From Bacteroidota bacterium (lineage in GTDB: Bacteria; Bacteroidota; Bacteroidia; Chitinophagales; BACL12), in NCBI GenBank assembly GCA_016715425.1, contig JADKAC010000002.1, positions 171,351-235,350 on the forward strand: a stretch of DNA of 64,000 bases, written 5' to 3'. The notes under the pieces were generated by a model. That model worked only from the letters and a program-made list of their open reading frames with translations. It was not told the origin of the DNA and searched no databases. Both the position numbers and the translations under genes were made by a program. Below, in pieces: positions 7,328-34,295 of the stretch (the first letter of the stretch is position 1; each line of letters starts with the position of its first letter).

Positions 7328-7720
7328 TTACAAAAAGGATTTTATTTTTTCTGCAATATTGGTGAGTTCTTGTTGAGTCATTTTCAATTTTGGTTTACTG
7401 AAATTTATATCATCCATGGTTTGTAAAGGAATAAGATGAATGTGCGCATGTGGCACTTCTAAACCTATTACTGCAATACCAATACGCTGACAAGGAATTG
7501 CTCTTTCCATGGCTGAGGCTACCTTTTTAGCAAATGGTAATGCTGCACTGAGTAATTGATTATCTAAATCAAATATATAATCCATTTCTATTTTGGGAAC
7601 CACTAGTGTATGCCCCGAAGCCAATGGCATAATATCAAGGAAGGCATAAAAATTCTCATCTTCCAATATTTTAAATCCCGGAATTTCGCCTGCAATAATT
7701 TTACTGAAAATACTTGACAT
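7328..7720 (-). CDS. HIT family hydrolase
   Basis: 130 aa with histidine triad HAHIHLIP. Confidence 0.9.
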   Translation of the reverse strand: MSSIFSKIIAGEIPGFKILEDENFYAFLDIMPLASGHTLVVPKIEMDYIFDLDNQLLSAALPFAKKVASAMERAIPCQRIGIAVIGLEVPHAHIHLIPLQTMDDINFSKPKLKMTQQELTNIAEKIKSFL

Positions 7721-7722
7721 GT

Positions 7723-8196
7723 TTAAATAGTTATATCCAGAATTTTTAATTCAAGTTCACCTGCCGGAATTGTAATTGTAACAACATCTCCTATTACGTG
7801 TCCTAATAATCCCTTTCCAATTGGAGATGTTACAGAGATTTTATTCGCTTTAAAATCAGCTTCTTTTTCAGCTACAAGCTTATATTGGATTTCTTTATTC
7901 ATTTTAGTATGGAGTACTTTAACTTTGGTAAGCACGGCAACTTTAGAAGTATCAATTTTTGATTCATCCATAATTCGGGCATTGCCAAGCAGTTCATCCA
8001 ATTTTGCAATCTTTAATTCCATCAATCCTTGAGCTTCTTTTGCAGCGTCGTATTCGGCATTTTCAGAGAGGTCTCCTTTTTCTCTTGCTTCTTTAATTTG
8101 TTTTGTTATCTCTTTTCTGCCTTTGGACTTTAATTGCTGAATTTCAGCAACTAAATTGTCGTATCCTTCTTGAGTTAAGTATGTTATATCAGCCAT
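7723..8196 (-). CDS. greA: transcription elongation factor GreA
   Basis: 157 aa. N-terminal coiled coil with DLSENAEYDAAKE, plus a C-terminal FKBP-like domain. Confidence 0.95.
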   Translation of the reverse strand: MADITYLTQEGYDNLVAEIQQLKSKGRKEITKQIKEAREKGDLSENAEYDAAKEAQGLMELKIAKLDELLGNARIMDESKIDTSKVAVLTKVKVLHTKMNKEIQYKLVAEKEADFKANKISVTSPIGKGLLGHVIGDVVTITIPAGELELKILDITI

Positions 8197-8272: not shown

Positions 8273-9343
8273 CTAGATACTTAATCTAATTCCAAATGAA
8301 TGTGTACCATCATAAGGGTTAGAAGATCTGTAAGAATAGCTTATAGAAAGCATATTAGAAGAAGAGTTTGCAAATGCGGTTTGGAATGTCACACCTGCAG
8401 CTAAGCCAGTATGTGCTGTTGTTCTTTCATCAGCATTTGATGAAAGCATTCCATCTTCATATCTGTATCCTGCACGAAGTAAAAACATTTCGGTATTTTT
8501 TACTTTTAATCCATATTCTAATCCTAATCCAAACTGATCCTTACTGAATGAATTAGAAATGAAAGTACCAACAGCAGTTAACCTATTAGTTGTTCCAAAA
8601 TAAAAGTCATAAGATAAACCAATAGAGAGTGAAGAAGGTAATTCAAAATATTCTGTAGGGAATCCAACTGTAGCTGTATAAGTTCCTTCGGGAACATTAC
8701 CTCTAAAAGTTATACCATCGCCACCATAACGCATAGGGCTGCCGATATTTTTAAGAGTAACCCCCATTTTCATTTGCTCTGGATGTTCTTCAGGTCCTGT
8801 GATATATTGAATACCAACATCCAATGCTACACCAAATGCCTTTAAATCAGAAATATTTTCAGAAATACCCCTAATTGTAAGTCCGCCGCTCAAATAATCT
8901 GCAAATTTCCTGGAATAGGATAACGCAAAATTCGATAACCTGGGTCTAAACGTAGCACCAGTTCCTTCAGGTGAGGCTGTAGTAGTAACCGGGATATCAC
9001 CAAGATTAAAATTGACAAGTGATAATCCGATTGCACCTTCTCCAACCTTTTGTGCAATACCAAAGGAATTAATGCTAATATCAGAACCTACTAACCATTC
9101 TGTTCTAGAAAAAGTCATATCTGTTCTATTGATAAAAGTTAGACCAGCAACATTCACATTCATAGACTCTAATCCTTGAATTGATGCCACATTTAAGCCA
9201 TACCAACCTGAACTTTGGGCCCAAGGGTTTATCAATATCTCTGAAGCCCCTGATTGTCCAGCTCTATCTGGGTTACCGGCTATAACCTTACCTGCCAATG
9301 CAAGTAACACAACAAAAACTTTTACTTTTAAAAATCCTCTCAT
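8273..9343 (-). CDS. PorV/PorQ/FadL-like outer-membrane beta-barrel protein
   Basis: 356 aa with a signal peptide. The N-terminal block AGQSGASEILINPWAQSSGWYGLNVASIQGLESMNVNVAGL resembles the PorV/FadL N-terminal signature. Alternating beta-strand pattern, and the C-terminus FGIRLSI is aromatic or hydrophobic. Starts 11 nt after the upstream gene. Confidence 0.5.
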   Translation of the reverse strand: MRGFLKVKVFVVLLALAGKVIAGNPDRAGQSGASEILINPWAQSSGWYGLNVASIQGLESMNVNVAGLTFINRTDMTFSRTEWLVGSDISINSFGIAQKVGEGAIGLSLVNFNLGDIPVTTTASPEGTGATFRPRLSNFALSYSRKFADYLSGGLTIRGISENISDLKAFGVALDVGIQYITGPEEHPEQMKMGVTLKNIGSPMRYGGDGITFRGNVPEGTYTATVGFPTEYFELPSSLSIGLSYDFYFGTTNRLTAVGTFISNSFSKDQFGLGLEYGLKVKNTEMFLLRAGYRYEDGMLSSNADERTTAHTGLAAGVTFQTAFANSSSNMLSISYSYRSSNPYDGTHSFGIRLSI

Positions 9344-9354
9344 TTATATAAGTT

Positions 9355-12300
9355 TTAGAAGGTATCAAGATCAATAGGACGCATAGCGCCAAACCATTTA
9401 ACAGTACGTTCACCAAGTTCTCCGGCATCTATATGAATTAGATAAACTCCACTAGCTACCATCACACCTTTTGCATTTTTTAAATCCCATTCAAGTGAAG
9501 TATCCAGATTATCTGACTTAGTCGTTAGGACTCCTCCCGAAGAAACTTCACCCGAAACGGCTCGTGAAAATTTCCGTACAAGAGTGCCATCCATAGAGAA
9601 GATACTTATGGTGCAATTACTTGGTAAATTAGTAATTTTTATTCTGTAGTCAACAGGACTGGTTTCATAACTGGAATAAGCATAATATGGATTAGGAACA
9701 ACGTTAATTAAATCCAAAGCGCTTTCGGCTTTAGCTGTATTCCCAACAGTAGCAGCCAAATTCTTAGTACTGAAATTATATAAAGGGAACCCAGCGTTTT
9801 CACCATTCACCTCATTATTTACATATCTGCGTGTTACTCTTATTTTCAATTTAGATTCTGTTGGAATCAATCCATCTTGAAGAGATAACATTGAAACTCC
9901 GGGAGCCGCCATTGGTCTTCCAATCCAAACCACATTTTTCCAGACTTCACGCACAGTTGTAGTTGAAGGTGGTGTTCCTCCTACAAAGGATAATGAATCC
10001 CTCCAGGTTTTACCTCCGTCGTAAGGAATACGTGTAACATATATATTGTGCTTACCTCCTAATATAACATCCAATCCACTTTCTCCAAAATATTTATCAG
10101 TTGGATTAAATAACATATCATCTGAGTTGCCATCAACGTTCACAAATGGATCCTCTCCAAAGAAAATATTAACCCTTTGGCCAGTTTCTACATTTATTGC
10201 ATATCCAGGGAACCAACTCCTACCAATTTCACCCGCCACTTCATTACCAAATTGATCAATTGAAGGTTTCTGACGGAGATCCATTTTATTTTCTCCATAT
10301 AAATTTGTAAACGTTCCTTCACCTGTATTTACCACTATACATTGAGACCATTTAGATCTATCACTTGTAAACACAATGTCAATACCATTTAAGCTGCTCA
10401 ACTTCTGCTGAGGTAAGGAGATTGTTAAGCCAATAATTTGACGAAGTGGCATGTATAATATTCCAGTGGATTCATTATTATATCGGGTTAGACCCATAGG
10501 TCCGATTGTACCACCGAAAATTGATTCATAAACTTCATTATCATCTACTCCTGGTATATCTGTTTCATCTACACCAGATCTTAACCAATTTAACAAAGGA
10601 GAACCATTTACATTTGGAACACCTGATAACCAAGGCATATTTACATTTTCGTATTCGATATTCCAACCAATTAAACCATTATTAGCTTCCCATTCAACTC
10701 CTGCAACTGCTGGGTTTGGTCCTGGTGGATAAACACCCTTAATAGTTACAGCAAGTCCCCAGTCAGGAATAATTTGTTCGTTTTTAAATCCAATAGGGAA
10801 ATCAGATTTTACCGATTCACCTGAAGTTAAATTTGTAATTACCCACCAGGTAGAATCATAATTCATTGCATATCCTGAAGGCGCTCCTGAAGCAGCTAAT
10901 GAAGAATCATATAACATTACCTGAAAATCAGCCGCAGGTACTCTAACAGGGTCATAAACTGCAACATCAATTGGTGCATGTCTACCTTCGTAAACCGGCA
11001 TAGCAATAGAGCCATTTGCTAAAATTTCATCTACGGTGGTGGTTGTTAGCTCCAGAAAATTACCTCCATTACCTAAACCTTCTACCATTGTAATGTCCGG
11101 TCCGTCACCATATTGTGCATTAAGTATTGTACCTCCTGCTTGTGGATCGGTTTTATGTGGAATTCCAACGTACAATTTTATATTATTTCTTCCTTCCAAA
11201 TATGGTCTCTTCTGAGAATTTGGATCAACAGGATCATATTCTTTAAATTCGTTATAAGCATAAGCCACTACTGAAAAATAATACTTTTTATAATTTACAA
11301 TTTTAGTATTGCCTGATGCAAATGCATCATCTGTTATTCTAAAAGTGTGAAAGATGCCATCATTATTACCATCTACTTGCAATACGGGGACATCTGCTCC
11401 TAATATAGGATCATATGTAAAGTTCACCAGCTTAACTACATCATCTTCAAGATCACACTGGAAAATCAATCGTGCTTTTGCAGGATCATTATATTCTGAA
11501 CTAGAAACTTGACCATTGACAAGTTGATATATCTTATACCCCTGAAAATTATAAGTAGAGTCTGAAATTGTAGGATCTTCATCAATTATACTTTTAATAA
11601 TTGGATCAGTTTCTTCATAAGATTCTCCCTTATTATTTGAATTTTGTCCGTTGGTAATTGAAAGAATTAATTCCTTGTCCAATTCTCTTATCGACATATC
11701 CGGTGCATCAGGACCACTGATTAATTCAAAATCATTATCAAATAATGCTTGAGCTTTTTGATCAGCAAGGGATATTGCATCGAATGTAGTTTGACATCCT
11801 CCGGAAATTGGAGGTCTCACCCATAGTGCACCAATCACAATTTCATTTGTAGCGCCCGGTTCCAATCTAAATGGACCAGAGGAAATAATAAATCTTCTGT
11901 CAGCCGGTGGATTACCCTCAGTACACTCGCTCCATCCTAAAGGATCGCCTGGATCACTAGGGAACATAAATGCATTTGACTCTGTGCCACCGTAGCCATT
12001 ACCACCATAGGTAAATGGAGAACCATCTTTCCAGCTTCCTGAAAGATATCCATAATAATGGGCTGCCACTTCAGGGTTTCCTATTGTTGACCAGTCATTA
12101 TTATAATAAAGGAAACCTGCCATACCCAAACGAACACTATCCGAAATAGATCCGCCATCATAGGTATATTTTATGGGTCCCTGAAAAAAGTCTGTACCAA
12201 ATAAAGGAGGGTTGGCACCGTATGCTGCTAAGTCAGGTCCATCAACGGCATCGCCATTATATGTAAGACCTAAAGAAAGAGCTGTATCACAACCTACCCA

Positions 12301-13203
12301 GTCATCCCAAGCATATCCTAAATCAGAATCAACCCAATAACCCATGAACACTGAATCAAGAGCCGAAGTAGCATAATTAATTACATTATATCTGTAAAAG
12401 GTCATGTCGTTAATCTCATCATTAGTACTGAATGCAAATGCAGTTGCTTGAATTTCAACACCAATAGCATCTCCACCGGATTCTGTATGGATATTTCCCT
12501 TATCATTATAAACCCAGAAGATTGCCTGATCTCCATCTACATCGGGATATTCACCAAAGTTTGGTTCATACTGCCCATTAAAATTTAAATCAACAAATGG
12601 AGCAAGTGGTTTATTAATCACCAAAACATCGGTAGCAGATTTACCTTTGGCATTAGCATTGCCAAGGGCTGGCCATTCCCAAATTACTCTAAATGTAGGT
12701 GAAAATGTAAGAGGTGTCGCATCAGAACCTCCAAGATTTATAAAGCTATCAATCAAACTGGCATTTACTTTCCAATGTCTGTCGTAGGCATTACACACCA
12801 CATCATCTACAGTACCTAAGTTATTCAAAGGCCCAGGCCAAAAATCATTACCGTTCTGCCGATAGGTTTGAGCAGCAATTTTCAATTGCCCTCCGGCGTC
12901 AATACCACCAATCCAAAGTGCGCCGGCAAAGGTGGAACTCACTTCAATATCAGGAGGGTATACCTTAGGTACCACATATTTACCATCAGTTAAATTCCAC
13001 CAAAAGTCACCTGCACCCAATAAACGAGCCCGTACATTATTAATGTCTAACTCAATTTGAGCGGTGGCATCATTACATGCTGCGGATAGCCTGCCATAGT
13101 TTTGAGCATTTCTTCCTGAAATACCTATGTTCTCTTTTGCTTGCGATGTAAAAACTACAGTTGCCAGTAAAATAGAAGTGAAAATTATTTTTTTGTTCAA
13201 CAT
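9355..13203 (-). CDS. 1282-aa secreted protein of unknown function with a T9SS type-A-like C-terminal domain
   Basis: Signal peptide MLNKKIIFTSILLATVVFTSQA. No HExxH or other catalytic motif that I recognise. C-terminus VVPNPYY...ISIFSMDGTLV...GVYLIHIDAG...VKWFG resembles Por_Secre_tail with an insertion. Confidence 0.8.
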   Translation of the reverse strand: MLNKKIIFTSILLATVVFTSQAKENIGISGRNAQNYGRLSAACNDATAQIELDINNVRARLLGAGDFWWNLTDGKYVVPKVYPPDIEVSSTFAGALWIGGIDAGGQLKIAAQTYRQNGNDFWPGPLNNLGTVDDVVCNAYDRHWKVNASLIDSFINLGGSDATPLTFSPTFRVIWEWPALGNANAKGKSATDVLVINKPLAPFVDLNFNGQYEPNFGEYPDVDGDQAIFWVYNDKGNIHTESGGDAIGVEIQATAFAFSTNDEINDMTFYRYNVINYATSALDSVFMGYWVDSDLGYAWDDWVGCDTALSLGLTYNGDAVDGPDLAAYGANPPLFGTDFFQGPIKYTYDGGSISDSVRLGMAGFLYYNNDWSTIGNPEVAAHYYGYLSGSWKDGSPFTYGGNGYGGTESNAFMFPSDPGDPLGWSECTEGNPPADRRFIISSGPFRLEPGATNEIVIGALWVRPPISGGCQTTFDAISLADQKAQALFDNDFELISGPDAPDMSIRELDKELILSITNGQNSNNKGESYEETDPIIKSIIDEDPTISDSTYNFQGYKIYQLVNGQVSSSEYNDPAKARLIFQCDLEDDVVKLVNFTYDPILGADVPVLQVDGNNDGIFHTFRITDDAFASGNTKIVNYKKYYFSVVAYAYNEFKEYDPVDPNSQKRPYLEGRNNIKLYVGIPHKTDPQAGGTILNAQYGDGPDITMVEGLGNGGNFLELTTTTVDEILANGSIAMPVYEGRHAPIDVAVYDPVRVPAADFQVMLYDSSLAASGAPSGYAMNYDSTWWVITNLTSGESVKSDFPIGFKNEQIIPDWGLAVTIKGVYPPGPNPAVAGVEWEANNGLIGWNIEYENVNMPWLSGVPNVNGSPLLNWLRSGVDETDIPGVDDNEVYESIFGGTIGPMGLTRYNNESTGILYMPLRQIIGLTISLPQQKLSSLNGIDIVFTSDRSKWSQCIVVNTGEGTFTNLYGENKMDLRQKPSIDQFGNEVAGEIGRSWFPGYAINVETGQRVNIFFGEDPFVNVDGNSDDMLFNPTDKYFGESGLDVILGGKHNIYVTRIPYDGGKTWRDSLSFVGGTPPSTTTVREVWKNVVWIGRPMAAPGVSMLSLQDGLIPTESKLKIRVTRRYVNNEVNGENAGFPLYNFSTKNLAATVGNTAKAESALDLINVVPNPYYAYSSYETSPVDYRIKITNLPSNCTISIFSMDGTLVRKFSRAVSGEVSSGGVLTTKSDNLDTSLEWDLKNAKGVMVASGVYLIHIDAGELGERTVKWFGAMRPIDLDTF

Positions 13204-13227
13204 ATATAATTGCTTTAAACTATTTTT

Positions 13228-16200
13228 TTAAAAATCAAATGATAACCCAATCCTAATTCTTCTAGGAATGCTATAATTATCAGGATTTTGCATTCTTGCT
13301 GTATATAAATCAGTAAATGACGCAGCATTCACCTGACCTTCAATGGTTTCAGCACCATAAGCAGAACTCAAATATCCATCATCTAATGGATTTCCGGTAT
13401 ATCCATAAACCGCTAAGATATTTTCTGTGTTAAACAAATTCTGAATCCATAAATACACATTCATGTTAACCATGCGTTCTTTTGATTCTTTACCCACTGA
13501 AAAACCCCAAGATTTATCTAATTTCATATCTGCACGAAAATGCCATGGCAATCTAGATCCATTTACTGTTCCATCAAGGTTTGTATTTCGATCATCACCA
13601 AATTGAGTAGCTGTTGGATTGCTTTGACGAGTGTATGGTTCACCAGAACGAGCATTGAATGTCATGTTTAATCCAATATTATTCATCCAAGTTGGCTGAC
13701 CTCCCATTGGATTATCAAAACGATAATCCATTACCACTTTAATATTATGACGTGAATCATAGTTTAAAGGAATTATTGCTCTAAGGTTTGGTTGACCGGA
13801 ACCCACAAGATTAAGTTGTGATGTTGCACTTGAACCTGTTCCATCTGCAAATTGTAAGGTATAGCTGGTAGATATTTTTAAATTTCTCGTCCTGCGTGCA
13901 ATATCATATGCAATGGAAATACCTTTAACTGTTCCAAAATCTATATTACCATAGGTAGTATATTGAACTGGTACGGCATAAGGTACGCTGATAATTTGAA
14001 CCATATCTCTGAGTTCTCTATAAAAAGCTGAGATTTTCAGAACGGATGATTCATTTAATTGCTGTTGGAAGCCAATTTGATAATCAATAGTTTTCTCTGG
14101 TTTTAAATCCGGATTATCGAATACATTATTTACATTTTCCTGAAAGTAATAATAATCATAAGCGGTAGCAGAGGTTCCGGTAGGTGGTCTTTGTGTTAAT
14201 ATATCATAATGGGCGAAGAACAAGGCTTCTCTATTCGTTTCTTTTGATATAGGGAAAGAGAATGCAATTCTCGGCATAACTGAAACTTGAGGTTTATAAT
14301 CTTCAAAAGAGGTACTTGGATCAAAATTCTCACTCTTTATATCTGTAGATGGATCCACCAGATAAGGAGTAATTGTACCAGTAGATGAACTCAAAGCAAT
14401 AGTTCTTGGATCTGTAATTTCCTCTCCACTTGAATTATACCAAGTATCCTCATCCCGATATCCTAAAATTTGAGTAGGATTATTATAATCATCTACATAG
14501 ACTGCATAATCACTTCCAATATTTCCAGGATGCGCACCATTTGGATTTAAAGCGGGATCCACTTCATTTACAGAATAAATTTCATATAATGAATATTTAT
14601 CTTTTAACACACTGCGGTTTGCATCATATCTGTCAACACGAACTCCCACACGGAAAATGATATCGTTAAAATTGAAGCGATCTTGAATATAACCTGCTGT
14701 ATAAACCGGACGGAAAGCACCAATTGGTCTAGTCTTAATTCCATCTTCGTTTTCGGCAGTCCAGAAATCATTAAAAGAAGGTTGAGTTGTTAATCTGTTT
14801 CCAAGAATATCATAACCATTGTAAAAAACAAATGCATTACCATTATTTAATAATTCATCTGCACTAAACAAGTCTAAAGAAAACACATCAACTGGAAGAT
14901 TATCAATATTAAGATAATCCTGATCACTCACATTATATCCCAGTTCATTCAATTTCTCTCTTAATTGTTGATCAAAATAGGTTTGATCTTCCGCCACAAA
15001 TAATCTATCGTAACGAATTGTATCAAATTCACCAAAGTCCAAACCTGAATCCAAATATTCCTGATAGGAATATTCTTGTCCGTCAATTACTAAAATAGGA
15101 TTATCGGTATCCAAATTTGTAATATGGCGATTTGCTAATTGGCGAGATAAGGTCCATAAACCAATTGGAGTAACTTGATATAAACGTTGTACTTGTTGTT
15201 GGAATTCAAATCCAAATTCAATGGAGTGCTTAGAAACGTTAGATGATTTCTTCCTGCTCTTCAAATCTATTGCTGCATTAAAGGTTAAACCATATTGATC
15301 ATTATTTTGCTTGAAATAATTACTATAAGGCACCCCTGCATTCCACCACATTCCATACACATTGGTTCCTTGTACATATGCATCTCCATTTAGTAACCCA
15401 CCACCTAATTGAATATCAAACAAACTGCGTGGATCAAATAAACTTTCATTGTAATACTGAGTAGTATAGGTGCTTAATTCTGGGTTAAGAGTTCCCGGAG
15501 TATATTCAACAAGTGTATCGGCATAACCTGCAAGGAGCCAACCGTTCAGACCAGTTGTTGGATCAGCTCCATATCCGTAAACTGGAGCTCTCAAAGTATT
15601 AAATTCACCTACATATCCATAATTAAATGGATTCATACCATGAGTTTCGTCTTGTGTGGTTCCATAATACTTGGTATAGTCTACTTGAATATTATAGAAT
15701 GCATTTCCAACTATACTTTCTTTTTCACCATCTGCTCCTTTCTTTTCAGGAAAACGTTGGGTAAATCTCAAAAATCCACGATAAGTATTTTGGTCTGAAA
15801 TAGGATTATTCTCTGAATTAAAAAGCGCAAAACTTCTTACATAATTATTTGCATCAAATCCTCTCCAGGTCAATCCGAGCTGAAGATTAGTTGTTTGACT
15901 TAGTTTATAATCAAAACGTGTGGAGAGTGAGATACCTCCTGAATTCACATTCTGCTTATATGCAACATCCTCCATATCATCAAATGTTATGAATTCAGAG
16001 CTTTTATTAAATCCTGCTCCAGAAACTGCCGGCTTAAGTGGATTTGCAATAAGATCATTCATTATATCGTCTTGGATTTTATAATTGCCAATTGCTGAAG
16101 GGTCTGAGTCTTTTTCCCATTCGCCTTCTGCAGCTATAAAAAATCCGAACTTGGCTACTTCATTATCCTTTCCCTTGTTTTGGGTAATGATAGGACCAGT

Positions 16201-16950
16201 AAGAAATACAGAAGCAAGATTATAATTATAAGGGTCTAAAAATGTAGATGTAGCTACTTCAGCACTACCATTATAAACTTTGGAAGGTCCTCTAGTTGTA
16301 ATTGCAATAAATCCACCAGTGGCGTCTCCGTACTTTGGATCTACACCACCGGTAATTACTTGTAATTGTTCAATAGCATCCTGTGGTAATTTTAAAGAGC
16401 CTGATACCCTTACACCGTCAATAACATATTCAGTTGCATCACCTCTGGAACCCTTAATGCTTAAGCCACCACCTTCATCACTTTGATAAACACCTTCTTT
16501 TGTGGCAGCAATAGAAGTTACATTCCTGGTAGCAATTTGTTGTATATCCTCCTTTGTTACAACGCCTCCTGTAGAAGTATTTCCTTTATCTACTAAAGGT
16601 GCTTCATATTGGATCACTATTTCATCAAGTGTTGTTCCCTCATTTAGGATTATATCTTTAAGAAAAACAATACCTGAAGAAACCACGATATTGGTTACTC
16701 GATATTTATTACCTTGATAGGAAGCTTCCACATCATAAGTACCCGGACTTAAGCCCGGAATAGAATAATTCCCGTCAAAATCAGTAACAGCACCTGTTTC
16801 CAATACGCCATTCTTAAAAACAGCCACATTCGCAAATGGAATTCCTTCACCCTTTGGATCAAGTACCTTTCCTTGTATTTCACCGTTTTGAGCAAAGGCC
16901 GTAGTTGCAACAAATATTAGTAGAGTAAATACGTATAAGAATTTATTCAT
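13228..16950 (-). CDS. oversized TonB-dependent-receptor-like outer-membrane protein with N-terminal carboxypeptidase-regulatory-like domain
   Basis: 1240 aa with a signal peptide. CarboxypepD_reg pattern (GKVLDPKGEGIPFANVAV...TDFDGNYSIPGLSPGTYDV), TonB-box-like LDEIVIQY, plug motifs (GLSIKGSRGD...YVIDGVRV...ITGGVDPKYGDATGG), and terminal barrel strand IGLSFDF. Confidence 0.85.
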   Translation of the reverse strand: MNKFLYVFTLLIFVATTAFAQNGEIQGKVLDPKGEGIPFANVAVFKNGVLETGAVTDFDGNYSIPGLSPGTYDVEASYQGNKYRVTNIVVSSGIVFLKDIILNEGTTLDEIVIQYEAPLVDKGNTSTGGVVTKEDIQQIATRNVTSIAATKEGVYQSDEGGGLSIKGSRGDATEYVIDGVRVSGSLKLPQDAIEQLQVITGGVDPKYGDATGGFIAITTRGPSKVYNGSAEVATSTFLDPYNYNLASVFLTGPIITQNKGKDNEVAKFGFFIAAEGEWEKDSDPSAIGNYKIQDDIMNDLIANPLKPAVSGAGFNKSSEFITFDDMEDVAYKQNVNSGGISLSTRFDYKLSQTTNLQLGLTWRGFDANNYVRSFALFNSENNPISDQNTYRGFLRFTQRFPEKKGADGEKESIVGNAFYNIQVDYTKYYGTTQDETHGMNPFNYGYVGEFNTLRAPVYGYGADPTTGLNGWLLAGYADTLVEYTPGTLNPELSTYTTQYYNESLFDPRSLFDIQLGGGLLNGDAYVQGTNVYGMWWNAGVPYSNYFKQNNDQYGLTFNAAIDLKSRKKSSNVSKHSIEFGFEFQQQVQRLYQVTPIGLWTLSRQLANRHITNLDTDNPILVIDGQEYSYQEYLDSGLDFGEFDTIRYDRLFVAEDQTYFDQQLREKLNELGYNVSDQDYLNIDNLPVDVFSLDLFSADELLNNGNAFVFYNGYDILGNRLTTQPSFNDFWTAENEDGIKTRPIGAFRPVYTAGYIQDRFNFNDIIFRVGVRVDRYDANRSVLKDKYSLYEIYSVNEVDPALNPNGAHPGNIGSDYAVYVDDYNNPTQILGYRDEDTWYNSSGEEITDPRTIALSSSTGTITPYLVDPSTDIKSENFDPSTSFEDYKPQVSVMPRIAFSFPISKETNREALFFAHYDILTQRPPTGTSATAYDYYYFQENVNNVFDNPDLKPEKTIDYQIGFQQQLNESSVLKISAFYRELRDMVQIISVPYAVPVQYTTYGNIDFGTVKGISIAYDIARRTRNLKISTSYTLQFADGTGSSATSQLNLVGSGQPNLRAIIPLNYDSRHNIKVVMDYRFDNPMGGQPTWMNNIGLNMTFNARSGEPYTRQSNPTATQFGDDRNTNLDGTVNGSRLPWHFRADMKLDKSWGFSVGKESKERMVNMNVYLWIQNLFNTENILAVYGYTGNPLDDGYLSSAYGAETIEGQVNAASFTDLYTARMQNPDNYSIPRRIRIGLSFDF

Positions 16951-22839: not shown

Positions 22840-24189
22840 ATGTTTAAAAAAATTCTGATAGCAAACCGTGGAGAAATTGCCTTGCGCATTATTCGTACTG
22901 CAAAAGAAATGGGTGTAAAAACGGTTGCTGTGTATTCAACTGCCGATAAAGAAAGTTTACCCGTGCGATTTGCTGATGAAGCGGTGTGTATCGGACCACC
23001 TCCCAGTAAGGATAGTTATTTAAGCATTCCAAACATTATGGCTGCTGCTGAAATTACAAACGCTGATGCCATTCATCCCGGCTATGGGTTTTTAAGTGAG
23101 AATCAGGGATTTGCTGAAATATGTAAGCAATACGGTATAAAATTTATTGGTCCACAACCGGAACATATTCAAGTGATGGGCGATAAGATTACTGCTAAGG
23201 AAACCATGCGCAAAGCAGGTGTTCCTGTAGTTCCCGGAAGTGCAGGTTTGTTGGACAGTGTAAGTGATGCAAAAAAACAAGCAAAAAAAATCGGGTATCC
23301 TGTAATATTAAAAGCAACTGCTGGTGGTGGTGGAAAAGGAATGCGCATTGTTTGGAAAGAGAGTGAAATAGAAAATGCATACGCATCTGCAAGTGCTGAA
23401 TCAAAAGCTTCTTTCAGCAATGATGCGTTGTACATGGAGAAATTTGTGGAAGAACCCCGACATATTGAAATACAAGTGGCCGGTGATCAATTTGGAAATG
23501 CTTGCCATCTCAGTGAAAGAGATTGTTCTATACAACGCAGACATCAAAAATTAGTAGAGGAAAGCCCTTCACCATTTGTGGATGAAGCAATGCGAGAACA
23601 AATGGGAGATATTGCAGTGAGAGCAGCAGAAAGTATTCAGTATGAAGGCGTAGGTACTATTGAATTTTTAGTGGATAAGCACCGCAATTTCTACTTCATG
23701 GAAATGAATACTCGTATTCAAGTGGAACATCCGGTTACGGAAGAAGTAGTGGATTACGATCTTATTAAAGAGCAAATAAAAATTGCCGCCGGTGAAAAAA
23801 TATCTGGTAAAAATTATTATCCATTATTGCATGCAATGGAGTGCAGAATAAATGCTGAAGATCCTTCAAAAGGTTTTATGCCTTGTCCGGGAAAAATTAT
23901 AAATTTTCATTCTCCTAAAGGTCATGGTGTGCGAGTGGATACTGCCGTGTATGCCGGTTATACAATTCCGCCGTATTATGATAGCATGATTGCGAAATTG
24001 ATTTGCAAAGCGAGAACTCGTGATGAAGTAATTTTAAAAATGCAGCGGGCTTTAGATGAATTTATTGTAGAAGGAATTAAAACAACAATTCCTTTCCATA
24101 AAAAATTAATGCGTGATGAAAGATTCAGAGCAGGAAAATTTGATACTTCTTTTCTAAATAATTTTGATTTCAGTGATTTAGGAGATTGA
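22840..24189 (+). CDS. accC: acetyl-CoA carboxylase biotin carboxylase subunit
   Basis: 449 aa. [14 protein letters not shown]-grasp GGGGKGMR, and [14 protein letters not shown]. Confidence 0.97.
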
Positions 24190-24195
24190 TAGGAC

Positions 24196-24362
<167 letters not shown>

Positions 24363-24363
<1 letters not shown>

Positions 24364-25298
24364 TTCAACTTTTCAATCGCTGCATTAATATTTTCCTCCA
24401 CATCTTCATTTGTATTTTCAGAAGGCACAAATGTATTTCCTGTTACCAATTCAAATAATTCAATATATCGTTCGCTGATATTCTGAACAATACTTTCAGT
24501 CATTTCCGGAACTGTTTGACCTTCTTTTCCCATAAAATTATTTTCTATCAGCCATTCTCTTACAAACTCTTTTGATAATTGTTTTTGTGGTTCTCCATTT
24601 TTTTGTCGTTCAGCATAACCTTCTTTATAAAAATATCTGGAAGAGTCTGGTGTATGAATTTCATCCATCAATAAAATGCGATCATCGGATTTTCCAAACT
24701 CATATTTTGTATCCACTAAAATAAGTCCACGCTCATTTGCCATGTGTGAACCTATTGCAAATAATTTTCTGGTGTATTCTTCTAACACTTTGTATTCTTC
24801 CTCACTTACTAATAGCGTTGCAATTATTTCTTCTCTTGAAATATCCTCATCATGCCCTTCTGATGCTTTAGTGGTAGGTGTAATTATTAGCTCAGGAAAT
24901 GCATCATTCTCCTGCATATTTTCCGGCATTGCAACGCCACAAATAATCCGCTTCCCACTTTTATATTCACGCCATGCATGGCCACTTAAATAACCTCTAA
25001 TCACCATCTCTACTTTATAGGGTTCACATTTTATTCCGATTGAAACTCGTGGGTCTGGAGTGCTGAGTAACCAATTAGGTATTTCATTTTTTGTCGCATT
25101 TAAAAAATAAGCGGCTATCTGATTTAATACTTGCCCTTTATAAGGAATTGGTTTTGGCAACACCACATCAAATGCAGAAATTCTATCGCTGGCTATCATT
25201 ACCAAATATGTATCCTGAATAGTATATACATCCCGCACTTTCCCTTTATAAAATGCAGTTTGTCCTTTAAACTTATTGTTGATTATTTCTGCCGACAT
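24363..25298 (-). CDS. purC: phosphoribosylaminoimidazole-succinocarboxamide (SAICAR) synthase; native 3' end lost in the anomalous block
   Basis: YKGKVRDVY...SDRISAFDV...KGQVLNQI blocks. The last credible residues are ...NAAIEKLK at about 24363. The 447-aa track ORF (to 23976) reads through junk and antisense accC. Likely start MSAEII at 25298. Confidence 0.88.
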
Positions 25299-25331
25299 GC
25301 AAATTTTTATTTGCAACAAAAATAGTGTTGC

Positions 25332-28707: not shown

Positions 28708-31332
28708 TTATTTACACTTGTATTTCATGTTTTTTGCATCGAAGGAGCAACCACCTGCTTCCACTATTTTCAATCCAACAATTAATGATTGAGGTGTAGT
28801 AGTGTTGATTTTTGTTTCTACATCTTTCAACATCACTTCACCTAACTGAAGATTTTTCATTTTAAATACATCTCCCTTCACGGTTGATCCATCACTTAAT
28901 GTGGTAGGTTTATCATTTATAAAATCTGCATCTGAAACAGTACCTGCAGCTTTCAGCAATAAAAAGAATTCATCGCTCACCATTGCTACTTTAAGTGTTG
29001 GATTAGGATTCAAAATATATTTAGTTTGTTCTACGCCATTCACCATTGCATTTCCTTCATACATATTTCCTTTCTTAGAAATTGTATTATCCAAAGCAGC
29101 AGCAGCTACTCCCGCAGTTGTAGTTGTTGTTGTTGTAGTCGTAGTAGTTTTCTTTTCTTCATTTCCCAAATCTCCGGTATCACCACCGCCATCATCAGAT
29201 CCACCCTCATCATCCAGCTGTTGTAATTGATCCAATTGATTTTGTCTGTTCTGATCTTCTTGTTGTTGCTTCTCTCTTTCTAATGCTTTCATTGCATCTA
29301 TCTCAGCTTGATTATAAGTGATGTTTGTATTTGGAATCTCACCGATAATTGTAAACTCAGTACGTCTGTTAATCGCATGTTCTTCCTCAGAACATTTTGC
29401 ACCATTCGAACATTTGTTTTTCAACTTAGTTTCACCATAACCTTTAGCAACTAATCTTGTTGGTTCAACTCCTTTATTAATTAAATAATCAACAACGGAT
29501 TGCGCACGGCGTTGTGATAAGTCAAGGTTATAACTATCACTACCACGGCTATCTGTATGTGAACCAATCTCTGCAATAATCGCAGGATTTTCTACCATTA
29601 CAGTTAACAAAGAATCTAATGAAGCAAATGACTCCGGACGCAATTCTGCCTTATCCAATTCGTAATAAATATTTTTTACTTCAATTTCCTTTTTTATTGG
29701 AATTGGTTCAATCATAATGTCTACATATAATGTATCATCATCTATCATCCCAACAGTAGTTGTTGTAGCTTCACCTTTATAGTAACCATCTTTAATTGCA
29801 GTAACACGATATTTTGCATATTCAGTACCACGATAGAATTCAAACATTTTTGTTGTTTGACTGGAAGCTGAATCTACCTTAGCAGAATTAGCAAGTAAGG
29901 TAACCGCAGCACCATCAATAACAGAACTATCTTTTGCAGAAAGTACACGACCCATAATTGTAAACAACGGTGGAATGATATATTCAAACTGATAAATATC
30001 ATCGCAACAAGTTTCGCTCTTCACAGAATAACCGCCTTTACGATTTGAAACTAAGAAACCAGTACGAGCTCTTTTTGTATCTAATGAATAATAAAAATCA
30101 TCTACTGATGAATTGATTGGAAAGCCGAGGTTGGCAACATTTTTAAAGCTCTTTAATCCACCATCTGCTTTATAAATATCCTGACCTCCCACATTTATTT
30201 GTCCGTTAGAACTGAAATAAAATTTATCTTCCTTCACACTATAAAAAGGTGTGATTTCATCACCTGCTGTATTTATTTTTCTACCACAGTTTTGAGGTAC
30301 GGTATAGTCTGCTCCGTTATTTCTTATTTCGGAATACCAAATATCCATTCCGCCAACTGCACCTTCACGATTGGATGAAAAATATAACAGCTCTTTGCCT
30401 TTATATAATCCAACTGCTGGATGTGTGGTTGTATATTTTGTACCTGATGCATTTATATCAGTAAGCTCTTTTCCTTTTGTCCATTCATTATTACGGAATT
30501 CACTCATATAGATTTTACAAACCATTTGTAAAGAATCATTCGGATTACATTCTGTGTAATAAAATCTTTTACCATCGGGTGAGTAAGCTCCATTTCCAGT
30601 ATGAGCGGTGGTTTCATTTATAGCACCCGCTAATTGTTGTGCTTTAGCCCAACCTTCGCCTTGTGGTTTCGCTTCAAAAATTCTTGATTTTAATTCTACT
30701 TTTTTACTGCTCCCTAAATCAATTATTTCTTCACTTACTAAAGATCCATAAATAAGATTTGTATTTGTAGGATCATATTTAGGTGAGAAATCGGTGTAGT
30801 TATTATTTACATTTTTATTCAAGTGTGTAATTTCTACATCCACCGGATCGGCTTGTAATAATAGAGCAAGGTCACAACCTTTTTGTTCATTTTTTGCAAG
30901 ACGTTTGTAATACGCAGCTTCCTGACCACGCATTCTTGTTTTATTAAATGCTTTGAATTCAGCAGAGGCAGCATCATATTTGCCATTCATCTTCAAACTC
31001 AATGCATAATAATATTGTGTTTGCGGATAATCTGTGGGAGCTTTATCCCACATTTTCTTAAACCATGTTTCAGAGTTTTCGTAATCTCTGGCTTTGTAAT
31101 AAGTAGTTGCAAGTTGATAGCCTACATAATTATCTGCATTCTTATTATATTCCTGCAAATAAATATCTATTGCATTGTAGTAACTGCCCGATTTCAATAA
31201 TTCATCGGCAAGCATTACTTCACGATTCACTTTTATTTTAGATTTCTTTGGCTTATCATCTCCACTGGATTGTGCAGAAACTAATTGCATCATCATCACC
31301 ATTGAAATACAAATCATTAATATCTTTTTCAT
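28708..31332 (-). CDS. OmpA-family peptidoglycan-binding protein (TPR plus TolB-like beta-propeller repeats plus OmpA_C) with an extra low-complexity linker and C-terminal domain
   Basis: 874 aa with a signal peptide. OmpA_C block NIYYELDKAEL...GSHTDSRGSDSYNLDLSQRRAQSV...GYGE...NRRTEF. This is followed by a Q/D/G-rich stretch, a T11 run and about 130 further residues. Confidence 0.85.
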   Translation of the reverse strand: MKKILMICISMVMMMQLVSAQSSGDDKPKKSKIKVNREVMLADELLKSGSYYNAIDIYLQEYNKNADNYVGYQLATTYYKARDYENSETWFKKMWDKAPTDYPQTQYYYALSLKMNGKYDAASAEFKAFNKTRMRGQEAAYYKRLAKNEQKGCDLALLLQADPVDVEITHLNKNVNNNYTDFSPKYDPTNTNLIYGSLVSEEIIDLGSSKKVELKSRIFEAKPQGEGWAKAQQLAGAINETTAHTGNGAYSPDGKRFYYTECNPNDSLQMVCKIYMSEFRNNEWTKGKELTDINASGTKYTTTHPAVGLYKGKELLYFSSNREGAVGGMDIWYSEIRNNGADYTVPQNCGRKINTAGDEITPFYSVKEDKFYFSSNGQINVGGQDIYKADGGLKSFKNVANLGFPINSSVDDFYYSLDTKRARTGFLVSNRKGGYSVKSETCCDDIYQFEYIIPPLFTIMGRVLSAKDSSVIDGAAVTLLANSAKVDSASSQTTKMFEFYRGTEYAKYRVTAIKDGYYKGEATTTTVGMIDDDTLYVDIMIEPIPIKKEIEVKNIYYELDKAELRPESFASLDSLLTVMVENPAIIAEIGSHTDSRGSDSYNLDLSQRRAQSVVDYLINKGVEPTRLVAKGYGETKLKNKCSNGAKCSEEEHAINRRTEFTIIGEIPNTNITYNQAEIDAMKALEREKQQQEDQNRQNQLDQLQQLDDEGGSDDGGGDTGDLGNEEKKTTTTTTTTTTTAGVAAAALDNTISKKGNMYEGNAMVNGVEQTKYILNPNPTLKVAMVSDEFFLLLKAAGTVSDADFINDKPTTLSDGSTVKGDVFKMKNLQLGEVMLKDVETKINTTTPQSLIVGLKIVEAGGCSFDAKNMKYKCK

Positions 31333-31364
31333 AAATTTTATTTCTCTATTTTCAAATTATCCTA

Positions 31365-32378
31365 TTAATATCTTGGGCAAGGTAAAATATAATTTTCAGG
31401 TAACACAGGAAGAATACAACCGGTGTAAACAAGTGATACTTCAAATCCACCACTACCATTTGTAGCTACATCTAAACCGGAAGTATTTACATCATAACTA
31501 AATCCGAATTTAAAGTTTTTATAATCTATTGCTACCATCGGAATCAGTGCATCACCATTTCTCAAATAAGCTCCTGCATAAATAGTGGCAGGGAAATTAG
31601 GATTGCGCATAAAGTATCCGATCTCAGCACCAAACAACATTTCTGTTGCACCACTTTGACCTTGATACATCACGCCTGGAATCAATGCTAAATTCTTATC
31701 TAAGTTCACAGTGAATTTACCATGAAGAATCATTCTGGTTCCTAAACTATTTCCCTGATCATCTAAAAAAGTTTCTGTTGGAGAAGTCAGGTGATTTGCT
31801 GCAGCGCCAACTTCCATTGCAAACGATTCAGAGAATCTTCCTTTATAAACTAAACCAAAATTCAAATCAATATTATTGATGTTATCACCTTGATAAGGTT
31901 CGAAGTTTGGAATGGCTGTATTAAAAGAAGTACCATCGAATTGATTACCAAATTGAAGATTCGCCCAGTCTAATTTCTTCTGAGAAAAACCAACTTGCAA
32001 TCCGCCGGATAAATATTGGTTAGTCCCCAATTGCATATGGTAAGCAGTGGAAGCTAAAACCGATAAGTTGGAAAGATTTCCATCACCGGACACATCGTTA
32101 TAAATATAAATTCCGACCGCTAAGTTATCAGTACCTCTGATGCCTTTTATAACAGGGGCATCTGCAAATACGGAAAAGGTTTCGTATTTGGCCGGTATGC
32201 TACCCCATTGGTTGCGATAGTTTGCGCCTGCTCGCCAGTCGCATGCATAGTTTCCGGTAAGTGCCGGATTCAATTGTAACGGTGCAGCATTAAACTGCGA
32301 AAAATGGATGTCCTGTGCAGATGCTGCAAGCGACCCCATCACAAAAATTGCTACTAAAAATTTGTTGAAGTTTGCCAT
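31365..32378 (-). CDS. PorP/SprF-family type IX secretion system membrane protein
   Basis: QDIHFSQFNAAPLQLNPALTG...YRNQWGSIPAKYETFS is the family signature. 337 aa beta-barrel pattern. Confidence 0.9.
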   Translation of the reverse strand: MANFNKFLVAIFVMGSLAASAQDIHFSQFNAAPLQLNPALTGNYACDWRAGANYRNQWGSIPAKYETFSVFADAPVIKGIRGTDNLAVGIYIYNDVSGDGNLSNLSVLASTAYHMQLGTNQYLSGGLQVGFSQKKLDWANLQFGNQFDGTSFNTAIPNFEPYQGDNINNIDLNFGLVYKGRFSESFAMEVGAAANHLTSPTETFLDDQGNSLGTRMILHGKFTVNLDKNLALIPGVMYQGQSGATEMLFGAEIGYFMRNPNFPATIYAGAYLRNGDALIPMVAIDYKNFKFGFSYDVNTSGLDVATNGSGGFEVSLVYTGCILPVLPENYILPCPRY

Positions 32379-32389
32379 GTAATCGATTT

Positions 32390-34270
32390 TTATCTAAGTA
32401 AAGTAATTGTTCCTGTTAATTTAAATTGATTGTTCTTTTCGTCAATCCCCACAAATATATAAATGTAAGAACCAACTTCCTGTTCTTTGCCTAAATAAGT
32501 ACCATCCCAGGCATCAGAAAAGTTTGTTCCGGTGAATACTAAAGTACCCCACCTATCATAAATTTCAAAAGAAATCATATCCATATCCCGTATTGGAATA
32601 GCCTTTACGGTCTCATTCATTCCATCTCCGTTTGGTGAAAATGCATTTGGAATATTTACGAGTTCTTCAAATAATACTACAACTGTCATTGAATCTGAAT
32701 CTATACATCCAAATTCATTTATCACAGTTACAGTATATGTAGTTGTTTCTTCAGGATTCGCTTTTGGATTTGAAATATTAGCATCGCTTAATCCAATAGT
32801 AGGTTCCCAAGTATATGTTACTCCGCCGCTGGCATTTAAAGTGGTGGATGAGCCATAATAAATTATCTGATCTAATCCCGCATTTGCCACAGGTATCGGT
32901 GTATAAATTACCACAGTATCTGTTGCCACACAACCAAAAAATACACCTGTTGCAACTATATAAGTAGTGTCAAATACAGTGGCTATTACTGTATCTCCTT
33001 CAAAGTAATCAAAGGCTTCGGCAGGCGACCAGAAAGTAACATTTGCACCTGTTGCATATAATTCGACAGGGACGCCGGGACACACGGTTGTTTCTTCCGG
33101 CCAAGCATCTAATGGGAAATAGTCATTCATATAAATGAGAATAGAATCGCCGGAGCTAATTGCGCAAGCTAATTCACCAGTTATAGAAATAAATTCAAGG
33201 CCTTCGGTTATTCCATCTAAATACACTTCGATAGGAACAATAATTATTGAATCCCCAGGATAGAAAATTACTATTTCCGGCATTGTAGAATAATCAACAC
33301 CATTTGTTGCTGTACCTGTAATTTCAAGATTTACAATTAAAGTATCCAGTGTTGGAGACGCAAGACTAAATGTAAGTTGCCCATGATTACATCCTTCAAT
33401 TAATTCAGGATAACCATCAATATCATAATCATATCCAATAGTAACACCGGTGCTACTTAAACTACCTGCACGAATAAACACCCCGGAATCCAGTGCGCCA
33501 TCACCCATATCACTTACAGCAAGTTTAAGATGATAGGTTTCACATGGAGTAACATGCGCTGCGGCAGTTAGCACTGTTGTAAATCCATCATATTGAATAT
33601 AAAAATCATCAGTAGAGTATGGCGAAGTAAAACCAGTACCATTTTCTACATAAAATTCTTCATAGCTGGTAGAGTTCACATTATTTATTGAAACCGGAAT
33701 AGTTGTCCCGGGAATTAATGCAATATTTTGAGTACCCACAATACCAGGTCCACTTATAAAGAATCCAAATGCATCATTGAAAGAGGATCCTACATATTCA
33801 AGATATTCTTCAGAGCCAAACACATATTCAAATTTTATTGAATCGGAAGTTACTGTTACATCAAATTCTAAAACACATGCATCATTGGAAGTATATCCCG
33901 GAACTAAGTCTTCCAAATCTGAATCTCCGGGACCTGTTCCTGGACCTGTCATGCTTCCTGAATTATTTGGCCCTTCCACCATTGAAGCACTACCTGAAGT
34001 AAGAAGAATTCCAGCATCCATTCCTAAACTACAATCCACACATTCAAACGAACCTGCGCCATCACTAACACAAGTGAATTCAACTCCACTGATTGTTACA
34101 CCAGCACCAACTAATAAGGCAGCAAGCTCTTCAGGTGTTGGCGTATCATCTATTTCAATTTGAGCTTGAAGAATAGAGCTATGAAAGCAAAGAACAAACC
34201 CAATACTAAAAACAAAAATTATTTTCAGTAAAGAAATATGTTTCATCTGTAATTGCAAAATTGCTTTCAT
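32390..34270 (-). CDS. choice-of-anchor-L domain adhesin with Ig-like repeats and T9SS type-B (CHU_C / gliding-motility C-terminal) sorting domain
   Basis: N-terminal LVGAGVTISG...GILLTSGSA...NDACVLEFD...FEYVFGSEEYLEYVGSSFNDAFGFFISGPG. C-terminal NAFSPNGDGMNE...YDRWGTLVF...WDGTYLG...GSYIY. The start may be MKHISLL (34246). Confidence 0.85.
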   Translation of the reverse strand: MKAILQLQMKHISLLKIIFVFSIGFVLCFHSSILQAQIEIDDTPTPEELAALLVGAGVTISGVEFTCVSDGAGSFECVDCSLGMDAGILLTSGSASMVEGPNNSGSMTGPGTGPGDSDLEDLVPGYTSNDACVLEFDVTVTSDSIKFEYVFGSEEYLEYVGSSFNDAFGFFISGPGIVGTQNIALIPGTTIPVSINNVNSTSYEEFYVENGTGFTSPYSTDDFYIQYDGFTTVLTAAAHVTPCETYHLKLAVSDMGDGALDSGVFIRAGSLSSTGVTIGYDYDIDGYPELIEGCNHGQLTFSLASPTLDTLIVNLEITGTATNGVDYSTMPEIVIFYPGDSIIIVPIEVYLDGITEGLEFISITGELACAISSGDSILIYMNDYFPLDAWPEETTVCPGVPVELYATGANVTFWSPAEAFDYFEGDTVIATVFDTTYIVATGVFFGCVATDTVVIYTPIPVANAGLDQIIYYGSSTTLNASGGVTYTWEPTIGLSDANISNPKANPEETTTYTVTVINEFGCIDSDSMTVVVLFEELVNIPNAFSPNGDGMNETVKAIPIRDMDMISFEIYDRWGTLVFTGTNFSDAWDGTYLGKEQEVGSYIYIFVGIDEKNNQFKLTGTITLLR

Positions 34271-34295
34271 AATATCCGTTTTAAATACAGTTATC

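Follow-up and report, generated by a model that had tools for sequence, protein, structure and literature searches.

Does an operon that combines a TonB-dependent transporter (TBDT), a protein with a type IX secretion system (T9SS) C-terminal domain (CTD) and a barrel of the PorV/PorQ family encode a single surface machine, and what would such a machine do? The question is raised by three genes on the minus strand of a 64,000-nucleotide stretch of DNA (hereafter the window, to whose first letter all coordinates refer), which covers positions 171,351 to 235,350 of contig JADKAC010000002.1 from the Bacteroidota assembly GCA_016715425.1. Surface-partnered TBDTs and the T9SS are two signature outer-membrane systems of the Bacteroidota that are normally treated separately, and this operon joins them genetically. 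The reading that we favor, with a probability of roughly 0.4, is that the products of all three genes belong to a single outer-membrane complex, vertically inherited in many Bacteroidota and most plausibly devoted to import. The triad probably encodes a so-far unstudied surface machine: surface-partnered TBDTs, CTD proteins with cognate barrels, and T9SS components that resemble TBDTs are known already, and what appears to be new is the combination, a third clade of the PorV/PorQ family and the unannotated family of the middle gene. A preliminary description of the locus, made from its letters, knew of no characterized system of this composition, and no paper describing a triad of TBDT, T9SS protein and PorV-like barrel was found in the full-text literature searched; an apparent mention of "PorV2" in Lauber 2024 proved to be an artefact of the text.

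The three minus-strand open reading frames (ORFs) lie at 13228-16950 (gene 1, 1240 residues), 9355-13203 (gene 2, 1282 residues) and 8273-9343 (gene 3, 356 residues), with intergenic gaps of only 24 nt between genes 1 and 2 and 11 nt between genes 2 and 3, exactly where the preliminary description had placed them. The strong terminator that it reported after gene 3 was also recovered: a stem of 11 bp, 5 of them GC pairs, is capped by a 4-nt GCAA loop and followed by a T8 tail, and the whole occupies 8249-8214 on the minus strand, beginning 23 nt past the gene 3 stop codon. Over 9.8 kb, the terminator scan returned 3 terminator-like sites compared to 6.5 expected by chance from shuffled sequence, none of them convincing inside the operon, and thus nothing suggests termination within it. 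The gap upstream of gene 1 measures 127 nt and contains a candidate promoter -7 box, TATTTTTG, at 17014-17007 (minus strand), 57 nt 5' of the gene 1 start codon, read from the sequence and taken by us to fit the Bacteroidota -7 consensus TAnnTTTG; a sigma-70 scan yielded matches at chance level only. An Rfam scan detected no element in the leader of gene 1, and a riboswitch-controlled importer of a vitamin or metal was rejected on this ground. We conclude firmly that the three genes form one transcription unit.

To place the operon in a wider context, a pattern scan was run with one genome per species, which identified at least 598 matching species; the synteny figures given here derive from the best 80 loci, picked by their best match to gene 2 and ordered by tblastn and ORF clustering. 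They represent Chitinophagales, Saprospiraceae (with Membranihabitans marinus, L074, as a cultured member), Flavobacteriales (Crocinitomicaceae and Cryomorphaceae), Bacteroidales/Lentimicrobiaceae and Sphingobacteriales, and the carrier lineages are mostly environmental. In 61 of these 80 loci, spanning at least four orders, genes 1, 2 and 3 follow one another in this order on a single strand, and most of the other loci sit on truncated contigs. The homolog sets of all three genes are hence syntenic across genomes, and we rejected chance adjacency on the grounds that the same order and strand recur in these 61 loci from other species. The median gaps are 23 nt between genes 1 and 2 and 27 nt between genes 2 and 3, compared to 94 nt to the next gene, which is greA, for a housekeeping transcription factor, in 59 of the 80 loci and is then followed by a HIT-family gene in 53, both on the strand of gene 3. 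Because the neighbors greA and HIT are conserved across orders, the module is part of an old, vertically inherited block and not of a mobile or substrate-specific island. Median identities to the window proteins are 41%, 39% and 43% for genes 1, 2 and 3, and 55% and 58% for GreA and the HIT protein. The divergences of the three proteins covary (Spearman 0.55-0.71, compared to 0.17-0.35 against GreA and HIT), a suggestive result that is biased by the gene 2-based choice of loci and by the shortness of GreA and HIT.

In the window itself, greA and the HIT-family gene (7328-8196, minus strand) adjoin the 3' side of the operon, and the upstream flank holds a 2-hydroxyacid dehydrogenase gene, ksgA/rsmA and pdxA. 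A 185-residue gene on the opposite strand comes next after greA and HIT in 33 of the 80 loci. Among the 80 loci there are also seven with a lone gene 2 paralog, one with a gene 1-gene 2 pair without gene 3 and two with a second gene 2; tandem or second copies of gene 2 around one gene 3 are found at L051:7001-16433 and L014:362-10981. Lone copies amid unrelated neighbors are listed for L022, L033, L040, L050, L064, L071, L076 and L080, where L033 belongs to the same metagenome-assembled genome (MAG) as L011. L064 and L071 were considered as divergent triads and rejected: their neighbors include alanine dehydrogenase and, in L071, also a RecB-like helicase, which identifies them as lone paralogs. 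Carriers labeled as Bifidobacterium, Fimbriimonadaceae and Limisphaerales MAGs (L063, on CAZZKP010000144.1, P0163, P0303 and P0167) consist of short contigs or partial proteins, and we take them for mistakes of binning and not for a spread beyond the Bacteroidota.

Gene 1 (13228-16950, minus strand) encodes a TBDT in which ORF translation, Pfam, AlphaFold2 (AF2) modeling and Foldseek reveal a signal peptide, a CarboxypepD_reg N-terminal extension (NTE), a TonB-box-like strand, a plug and a barrel of about 22 strands. Pfam recognizes CarboxypepD_reg at residues 25-93 (55 bits; PF13620 at 8.6e-15 and PF13715 at 1.2e-9) and, together with the family profile, delimits an NTE of residues 25-113 (16612-16878); NTEs of this fold are typical of SusC- and Oar-type TBDTs, and the gene 1 family profile, built from 86 sequences, matches the SusC-homolog NTE structures 9hfj_A and 6ytc_A. 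The plug domain, which Pfam, the family profile and the secondary structure of the model place at about residues 127-234 (16249-16572), scores 34.1 bits against PF07715 (cutoff 23.9) over residues 130-213 and matches the plugs of PirA, Cir and FepA by profile (E 4e-12 to 1e-5). A hydrophobic strand between the NTE and the plug, for which column counts over 60 homologs give the family pattern E-[VI]-[VI]-[VI]-x-Y and then K-V-P-L-I-D, supplies a candidate TonB box at residues 107-115 (TLDEIVIQY, 16606-16632), at a spot that we take to be typical for the TonB box of SusC-like TBDTs.

The remainder of gene 1, about residues 244-1240 (13231-16221), forms the barrel region, as seen in the strand pattern of the AF2 model (residues 100-1240, model numbering +99; predicted local distance difference test score (pLDDT) 89.1, predicted template-modeling score 0.84) and in its alignment to whole 22-strand TBDTs. 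The best Foldseek matches in the PDB are PhuR, FhuA, PfeA, YddB, FusA and Cir, with XusA also among the matches, and the alignments span the entire targets (E down to 5e-27; template-modeling (TM) scores 0.6-0.74, target-normalized). DSSP counts about 22-24 strands, and long insertions lie at about residues 280-336, 486-544, 594-748, 777-887 and 1171-1230. A barrel of more than 22 strands was rejected, the extra ~400 residues being inter-strand insertions in the model and the Foldseek alignments. The preliminary description was therefore right that gene 1 is a TBDT-like protein with CarboxypepD_reg and plug domains and that its barrel region is extra-long, but its "oversized barrel" gives way to a barrel of normal strand number with long insertions. 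The window protein lacks a Pfam match to TonB_dep_Rec PF00593, which about half of the listed gene 1 homologs match. The family numbers 896 matches among the scored candidates, keeps its length at ~1,230-1,290 residues, and carries the source names "carboxypeptidase regulatory-like domain-containing protein" or "TonB-dependent receptor". Gene 1 thus qualifies as a genuine TBDT whose loops are unusually elaborate.

The arrangement of CarboxypepD_reg NTE, plug and barrel is that of Oar-class TBDTs, which raises the idea that gene 1, like Oar of Myxococcus, works outward and exports or releases a protein or other molecule, with the products of genes 2 and 3 as surface receptor or processing partner. 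This architecture is, however, the dominant TBDT type in Bacteroidetes and carries little information (PMC6434023), gene 2 already possesses its own export route in the form of a Sec signal and a T9SS CTD, and the conserved block encodes no candidate exported substrate, so that we regard outward transport as very unlikely.

Gene 2 (9355-13203, minus strand) specifies a secreted, nearly all-beta multidomain protein of ~140 kDa that ends in a T9SS CTD, according to its ORF, its AF2 model and database scans. The translation begins with a Sec signal peptide of 22 residues, MLNKKIIFTSILLATVVFTSQA (13138-13203), which is cut after SQA and before KEN and is of the signal peptidase I (SPI) type; since it lacks a lipobox cysteine, the product is not a lipoprotein. 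Among 81 family members the signal peptide is the least conserved segment. The preliminary description recognized no family in this protein, and the searches agree: Pfam gave no match at E<=0.1, a full-length NCBIfam scan detected nothing outside weak PorZ/PorU tail matches in the last ~120 residues, and neither the single protein nor a 13-sequence family profile found a relative among PDB sequences. A word-indexed search returned at least 4,945 homologs, all named "hypothetical", with full-length identities of 40-60%, and an exhaustive search with the single protein retrieved 7,546 representatives (at 50% identity) at E<=1e-3, 2,637 of them at E<=1e-30. The family thus comprises thousands of sequence clusters that have neither a Pfam model nor a solved relative nor a name.

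The AF2 model of gene 2 (residues 23-1160, pLDDT 88.2) is almost wholly beta. Foldseek against the PDB detected weak partial matches to GH116, GH94, GH65, GH15-like and related enzymes (E 4e-6 to 1e-3, TM only ~0.2, root-mean-square deviation >10 Å), and against the viral library BFVD it returned only generic FN3 and tail-fibre noise. A known enzyme or adhesin family is consequently absent from the results of Pfam, NCBIfam, the PDB profile search and Foldseek against the PDB and BFVD. Enzymes of these GH types have a beta-supersandwich, and the helices of gene 2 are too few to make up the helical barrels that carry out their catalysis; the supersandwich was accordingly taken as the shared part and was placed tentatively in the N-terminal beta domain, at about residues 49-492 (11728-13059), which is otherwise defined by its invariant columns. 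Invariant Asp, Asn, Trp, Tyr and Arg are dense across the N-terminal ~450 residues, with YNDKGNIH and W-x-D-x-D-x-G...DD...CD among the conserved stretches, a pattern that would suit a fixed ligand- or Ca-binding site. Taken together, the weak supersandwich likeness and the invariant residue set fit ligand or glycan binding by gene 2, although we offer this as a guess.

A large, all-beta protein built in part of Ig/FN3-like sandwiches could instead be a barrel-anchored adhesin or surface-layer protein, with the TBDT kept in the operon by ancestry and sharing no mechanism with it. The inserted Big_9 or Cadherin-like domains of some gene 2 homologs and the lone paralogs that have neither gene 1 nor gene 3 nearby are in line with such a role. 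Yet the median gap of 23 nt between genes 1 and 2 holds in 61 loci across orders, the divergences of the two proteins covary, and gene 2, whose N-terminal domain is full of invariant residues and in which Pfam recognizes no tandem repeats, contrasts with the variable, repetitive sequences that are usual for adhesins. We therefore judge this explanation unlikely.

The C-terminal tail of gene 2 is the part that would connect it to gene 3. NCBIfam and alignment define an enlarged type-A-like CTD at about residues 1160-1282 (9358-9726), and when the tail was scanned alone the PorZ CTD scored 35 bits, TIGR04183 20.9 bits and the PorU tail 18.5 bits. The tail stays just under the TIGR04183 cutoff of 23; the type-A-like tail of the preliminary description finds a basis in its motifs, but the PorZ CTD fits better. 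Similarity to PorZ and PorU is confined to the tail (PorZ NF052228 at 30-35 bits against a cutoff of 260, PorU NF033707 at 15-18 bits against a cutoff of 420); the protein has no Pfam match to Peptidase_C25, and PorZ or PorU structures are absent from its top 50 Foldseek matches in the PDB. The window also encodes two ordinary type-A cargos, at 41318-42811 (minus strand, 497 residues) and 45450-48032 (plus strand, 860 residues), both of which pass TIGR04183, with scores of 38 and 52 bits, and from its genes the genome thus shows a canonical type-A pathway that is predicted to run beside the gene 2/gene 3 pair. Compared to these two CTDs, the gene 2 tail keeps PNP, GxY and the terminal K-x-x-G, and differs by three insertions and the C-terminal extension MRPIDLDTF. 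The extension, with the consensus [ML]RP[IVT]DL[DN]x[FY], is family-wide and also occurs in stand-alone paralogs; it is kept in the lone copies checked, those of L022, L033, L040 and L050. The best-conserved 40-residue block of the entire protein, residues 1161-1200, lies within the CTD (0.75, compared to ~0.55 for the body, in 81 members). That the CTD is the best-conserved part of the 1282 residues is not as expected for a disposable export signal. Retention of the CTD is known for two T9SS proteins, PorZ on PorQ and PorU on PorV, and uncleaved CTDs are retained by cognate PorV-like barrels in PorU/PorV, PorZ/PorQ and type-B cargo with PorP/SprF (PMC10202324, PMC12365241).

Gene 3 (8273-9343, minus strand) would provide a barrel of this kind. 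NCBIfam and the family profile assign its 356-residue product to the PorV/PorQ family of outer-membrane barrels, with 136.1 bits against PorV_fam NF033709 (cutoff 90) over profile positions 7-325 of 326, and NCBI names it "PorV/PorQ family protein". It falls below the equivalog models for PorV (NF033710, 67.6 bits against a cutoff of 250, with the N-terminal half alone aligning) and PorQ (NF033711, 44.9 bits against 220) and below the PorV2 model (24.4 bits against 325). A profile of 30 sequences matches F. johnsoniae PorV, 6h3i_F, at E=4.4e-14, mostly through the N-terminal half. FadL/Toluene_X PF03349 gave no match at E<=0.1, the sole Pfam match being OMP_b-brl at 0.073. Of the PorV/PorQ/FadL-like assignment in the preliminary description, the PorV/PorQ part is upheld and the FadL part falls; gene 3 as FadL, and hence as an ordinary FadL-type transporter, was rejected. 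The reading of gene 3 as a diverged PorQ was rejected as well: the Saprospiraceae locus L073 encodes a true PorQ (332 bits, cutoff 220) at L073:1132-2280 (plus strand), 1.1 kb upstream of the triad of that genome, and its coexistence with a gene 3 homolog makes gene 3 a separate paralog. No such PorQ was seen in the other Saprospiraceae loci, and the adjacency may be coincidence. By its profile scores, gene 3 belongs to the PorV/PorQ family but to a clade distinct from PorV, PorQ and PorV2.

How could the three proteins work together? Gene 2 would be exported by Sec and then moved across the outer membrane by the T9SS, where its enlarged PorZ-like CTD would escape sortase cleavage and remain bound to gene 3 at its extracellular loops, in the way that PorZ stays with PorQ and PorU with PorV. 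Gene 3 would thereby become the private protein anchor of gene 2, a role proposed because the CTD of gene 2 is judged to be PorZ-like and to be retained on gene 3. The preliminary description had likewise suggested a private PorV paralog for one cargo, which the unusually conserved PorZ-like CTD supports and which fits the published principle (PMC10202324). By analogy with PorZ and PorU, we consider it likely that gene 2 travels by Sec and the T9SS and stays on gene 3 through an uncleaved CTD. The anchored protein would then sit beside or over the long TBDT loops, its invariant N-terminal beta domain would capture a conserved, possibly glycan-like ligand, and the TBDT would import this ligand with TonB energy: SusC/SusD logic, but with a T9SS-delivered, barrel-anchored partner in place of the lipoprotein. 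A contact between a PorV-family barrel and a TBDT has a precedent in C. hutchinsonii, where PorV co-immunoprecipitates with CHU_1606 (PMC8564354). We propose only tentatively that anchored gene 2 caps or flanks the TBDT loops and hands over a conserved ligand for TonB-driven import. Equally provisional is the broader picture of a phylum-wide machine, in which a third PorV/PorQ clade would permanently anchor a ~140-kDa T9SS-delivered protein to a TonB-energized transporter. Such a machine might equally well supply the context in which TBDT-like proteins such as PorF are linked to type IX secretion.

Several observations weigh against import by such a complex. The locus is devoid of features of a polysaccharide utilization locus (PUL): no regulator, carbohydrate-active or degradative enzyme or riboswitch was found, and its neighbors are housekeeping genes. 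SusCD pairs multiply and diverge with substrate, unlike this module, which mostly occurs as one copy and is, by the standard of surface proteins, well conserved (39-43% identity, compared to 55-58% for GreA and HIT). Lone gene 2 paralogs exist, and L070 carries a gene 1-gene 2 pair with no gene 3 adjacent. The fold matches of gene 2 are weak, with TM ~0.2, so that glycan binding by the modeled domain is a guess, and the covariation of the three proteins has the sampling bias described above. (In L070, the pair is followed by an RND efflux pump.)

Some of these features, namely the greA/HIT synteny, the usual single copy and the lack of regulators and enzymes, suit a constitutive core function, and the module might accordingly be an accessory of the T9SS or of envelope biogenesis, a second attachment-like unit analogous to PorF, to the CTD-keeping and carbohydrate/A-LPS-binding surface protein PorZ and to the anchor barrel of the latter, PorQ. 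In this view gene 2 would bind or hand on a glycan or glycolipid of the cell surface, and the TBDT would either provide or recycle a precursor or else lend TonB energy to the process. The best-scoring model for the gene 2 tail is the CTD of PorZ, and the N-terminal domain of gene 2 resembles carbohydrate-associated supersandwiches; PorZ has been described as carbohydrate-binding (PMC8754138). TBDT-like proteins are also linked to the T9SS experimentally: PorF of Porphyromonas gingivalis is a TBDT-like T9SS component whose mutant resembles porQ and porZ mutants (PMC12704123), and PorV of C. hutchinsonii co-purifies with a PorF-like TBDT (PMC8564354). The similarity of gene 2 to PorZ does not extend to the body, however, given that the NCBIfam match covers the tail only and that no PorZ appears in the top 50 Foldseek matches; gene 3 differs from PorQ, of which L073 has a true copy in addition to the module. 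CHU_1606 has ~91 kDa compared to a calculated ~138 kDa for gene 1, a comparison by size only, and published T9SS lists for P. gingivalis and F. johnsoniae contain no such protein (PMC7463736), the module itself not having been searched for in those species. We rate an accessory role as less probable than import, yet as its strongest competitor; outward transport and a plain adhesin are less likely than this alternative. Overall, the interpretation given in the preliminary description is partly supported: none of the three findings that it had named as fatal turned up, the composition and synteny of the triad hold, and capture and import remain a proposal.

If correct, the import complex would add a third case in which a cognate barrel retains a CTD and would help to define uncleavable CTDs, it would represent a new type of TBDT partner, and it would provide a handle on the role of TBDT-like proteins such as PorF in type IX secretion. 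The cultured carrier M. marinus makes the proposal experimentally testable.

Other features of the window include a pair of adjacent plus-strand genes at 54329-62949, whose 1490- and 1364-residue products contain PKD-like repeats (matches to polycystin models), the second with a type-B CTD; no PorP/SprF gene was seen near this pair up to the end of the window. The 431-residue ORF at 36761-38056 (minus strand) matches prolipoprotein diacylglyceryl transferase (Lgt) in separated stretches, below cutoffs, and, being longer than the matched profiles (252-310 positions), may be an extended or fused form. The ORFs at 22840-24189 (plus strand) and 23976-25319 (minus strand) overlap by ~214 nt, and one of the two start codons was probably miscalled in the mechanical ORF list.

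Comparison with known systems clarifies which elements of the triad have counterparts. In PorZ-PorQ and PorU-PorV of P. gingivalis, as proposed here, a T9SS surface protein keeps its CTD and is held by a cognate barrel of the PorV/PorQ family (PMC10202324, PMC12365241). The body of gene 2 is nevertheless unrelated to the beta-propellers of PorZ and the C25 peptidase of PorU, gene 3 fails the PorV, PorQ and PorV2 models, the operon includes a TBDT, and CTD retention in gene 2 is inferred. Type-B cargo with PorP/SprF, as in SprB-SprF and PG1035-PorP, resembles the triad in that a CTD protein is encoded beside its own anchoring barrel (PMC9143113), but the gene 2 CTD is type-A-derived with no TIGR04131/CHU_C match, gene 3 is of the PorV/PorQ family, and the triad has a TBDT instead of a PorE-like OmpA partner. 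The window offers a textbook example of such type-B cargo with PorP/SprF, and thereby an internal comparison for cargo with a private barrel, in the classical T9SS cluster at 28708-36629 (minus strand), which encodes two choice-of-anchor-L/Calx-beta proteins with type-B CTDs (777 and 626 residues), a PorP/SprF barrel (337 residues) and an 874-residue PorE/CHU_0125-like OmpA protein that falls below both equivalog cutoffs.

PorF (PG0534) and CHU_1606 are, like gene 1, TBDT-type proteins, tied functionally or physically to PorV-family barrels and T9SS output (PMC12704123, PMC8564354). By its size (~91 kDa compared to ~138 kDa), CHU_1606, the PorF homolog, is no obvious ortholog of gene 1, and the cited papers place neither PorF nor CHU_1606 in an operon with a PorV paralog or a CTD protein. 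In BamG-BamH of the Bacteroidota BAM complex, a 14-strand FadL-family barrel permanently binds a large extracellular protein by its loops and does not act as a channel (PMC12578637), much as we envisage for gene 3, but BamH is a surface lipoprotein, BamG is of the FadL/Toluene_X type, and the complex is built around BamA and not around a TBDT. Finally, SusC/SusD, RagAB, BtuB-BtuG and XusA-XusB share with the triad a CarboxypepD_reg-NTE TBDT encoded directly upstream of a surface partner. Gene 2 is not a partner of the SusD/RagB type: it has no Pfam or NCBIfam SusD match, its SPI signal lacks a lipobox, and it is a 1282-residue all-beta protein that would take the T9SS route. The triad further differs from these pairs by its third, barrel component, by its usual single copy amid housekeeping neighbors and by the absence of PUL features, and, if our proposal is true, it would be an alternative to the SusCD paradigm that is assembled through the T9SS and anchored by a protein in place of a lipoprotein.

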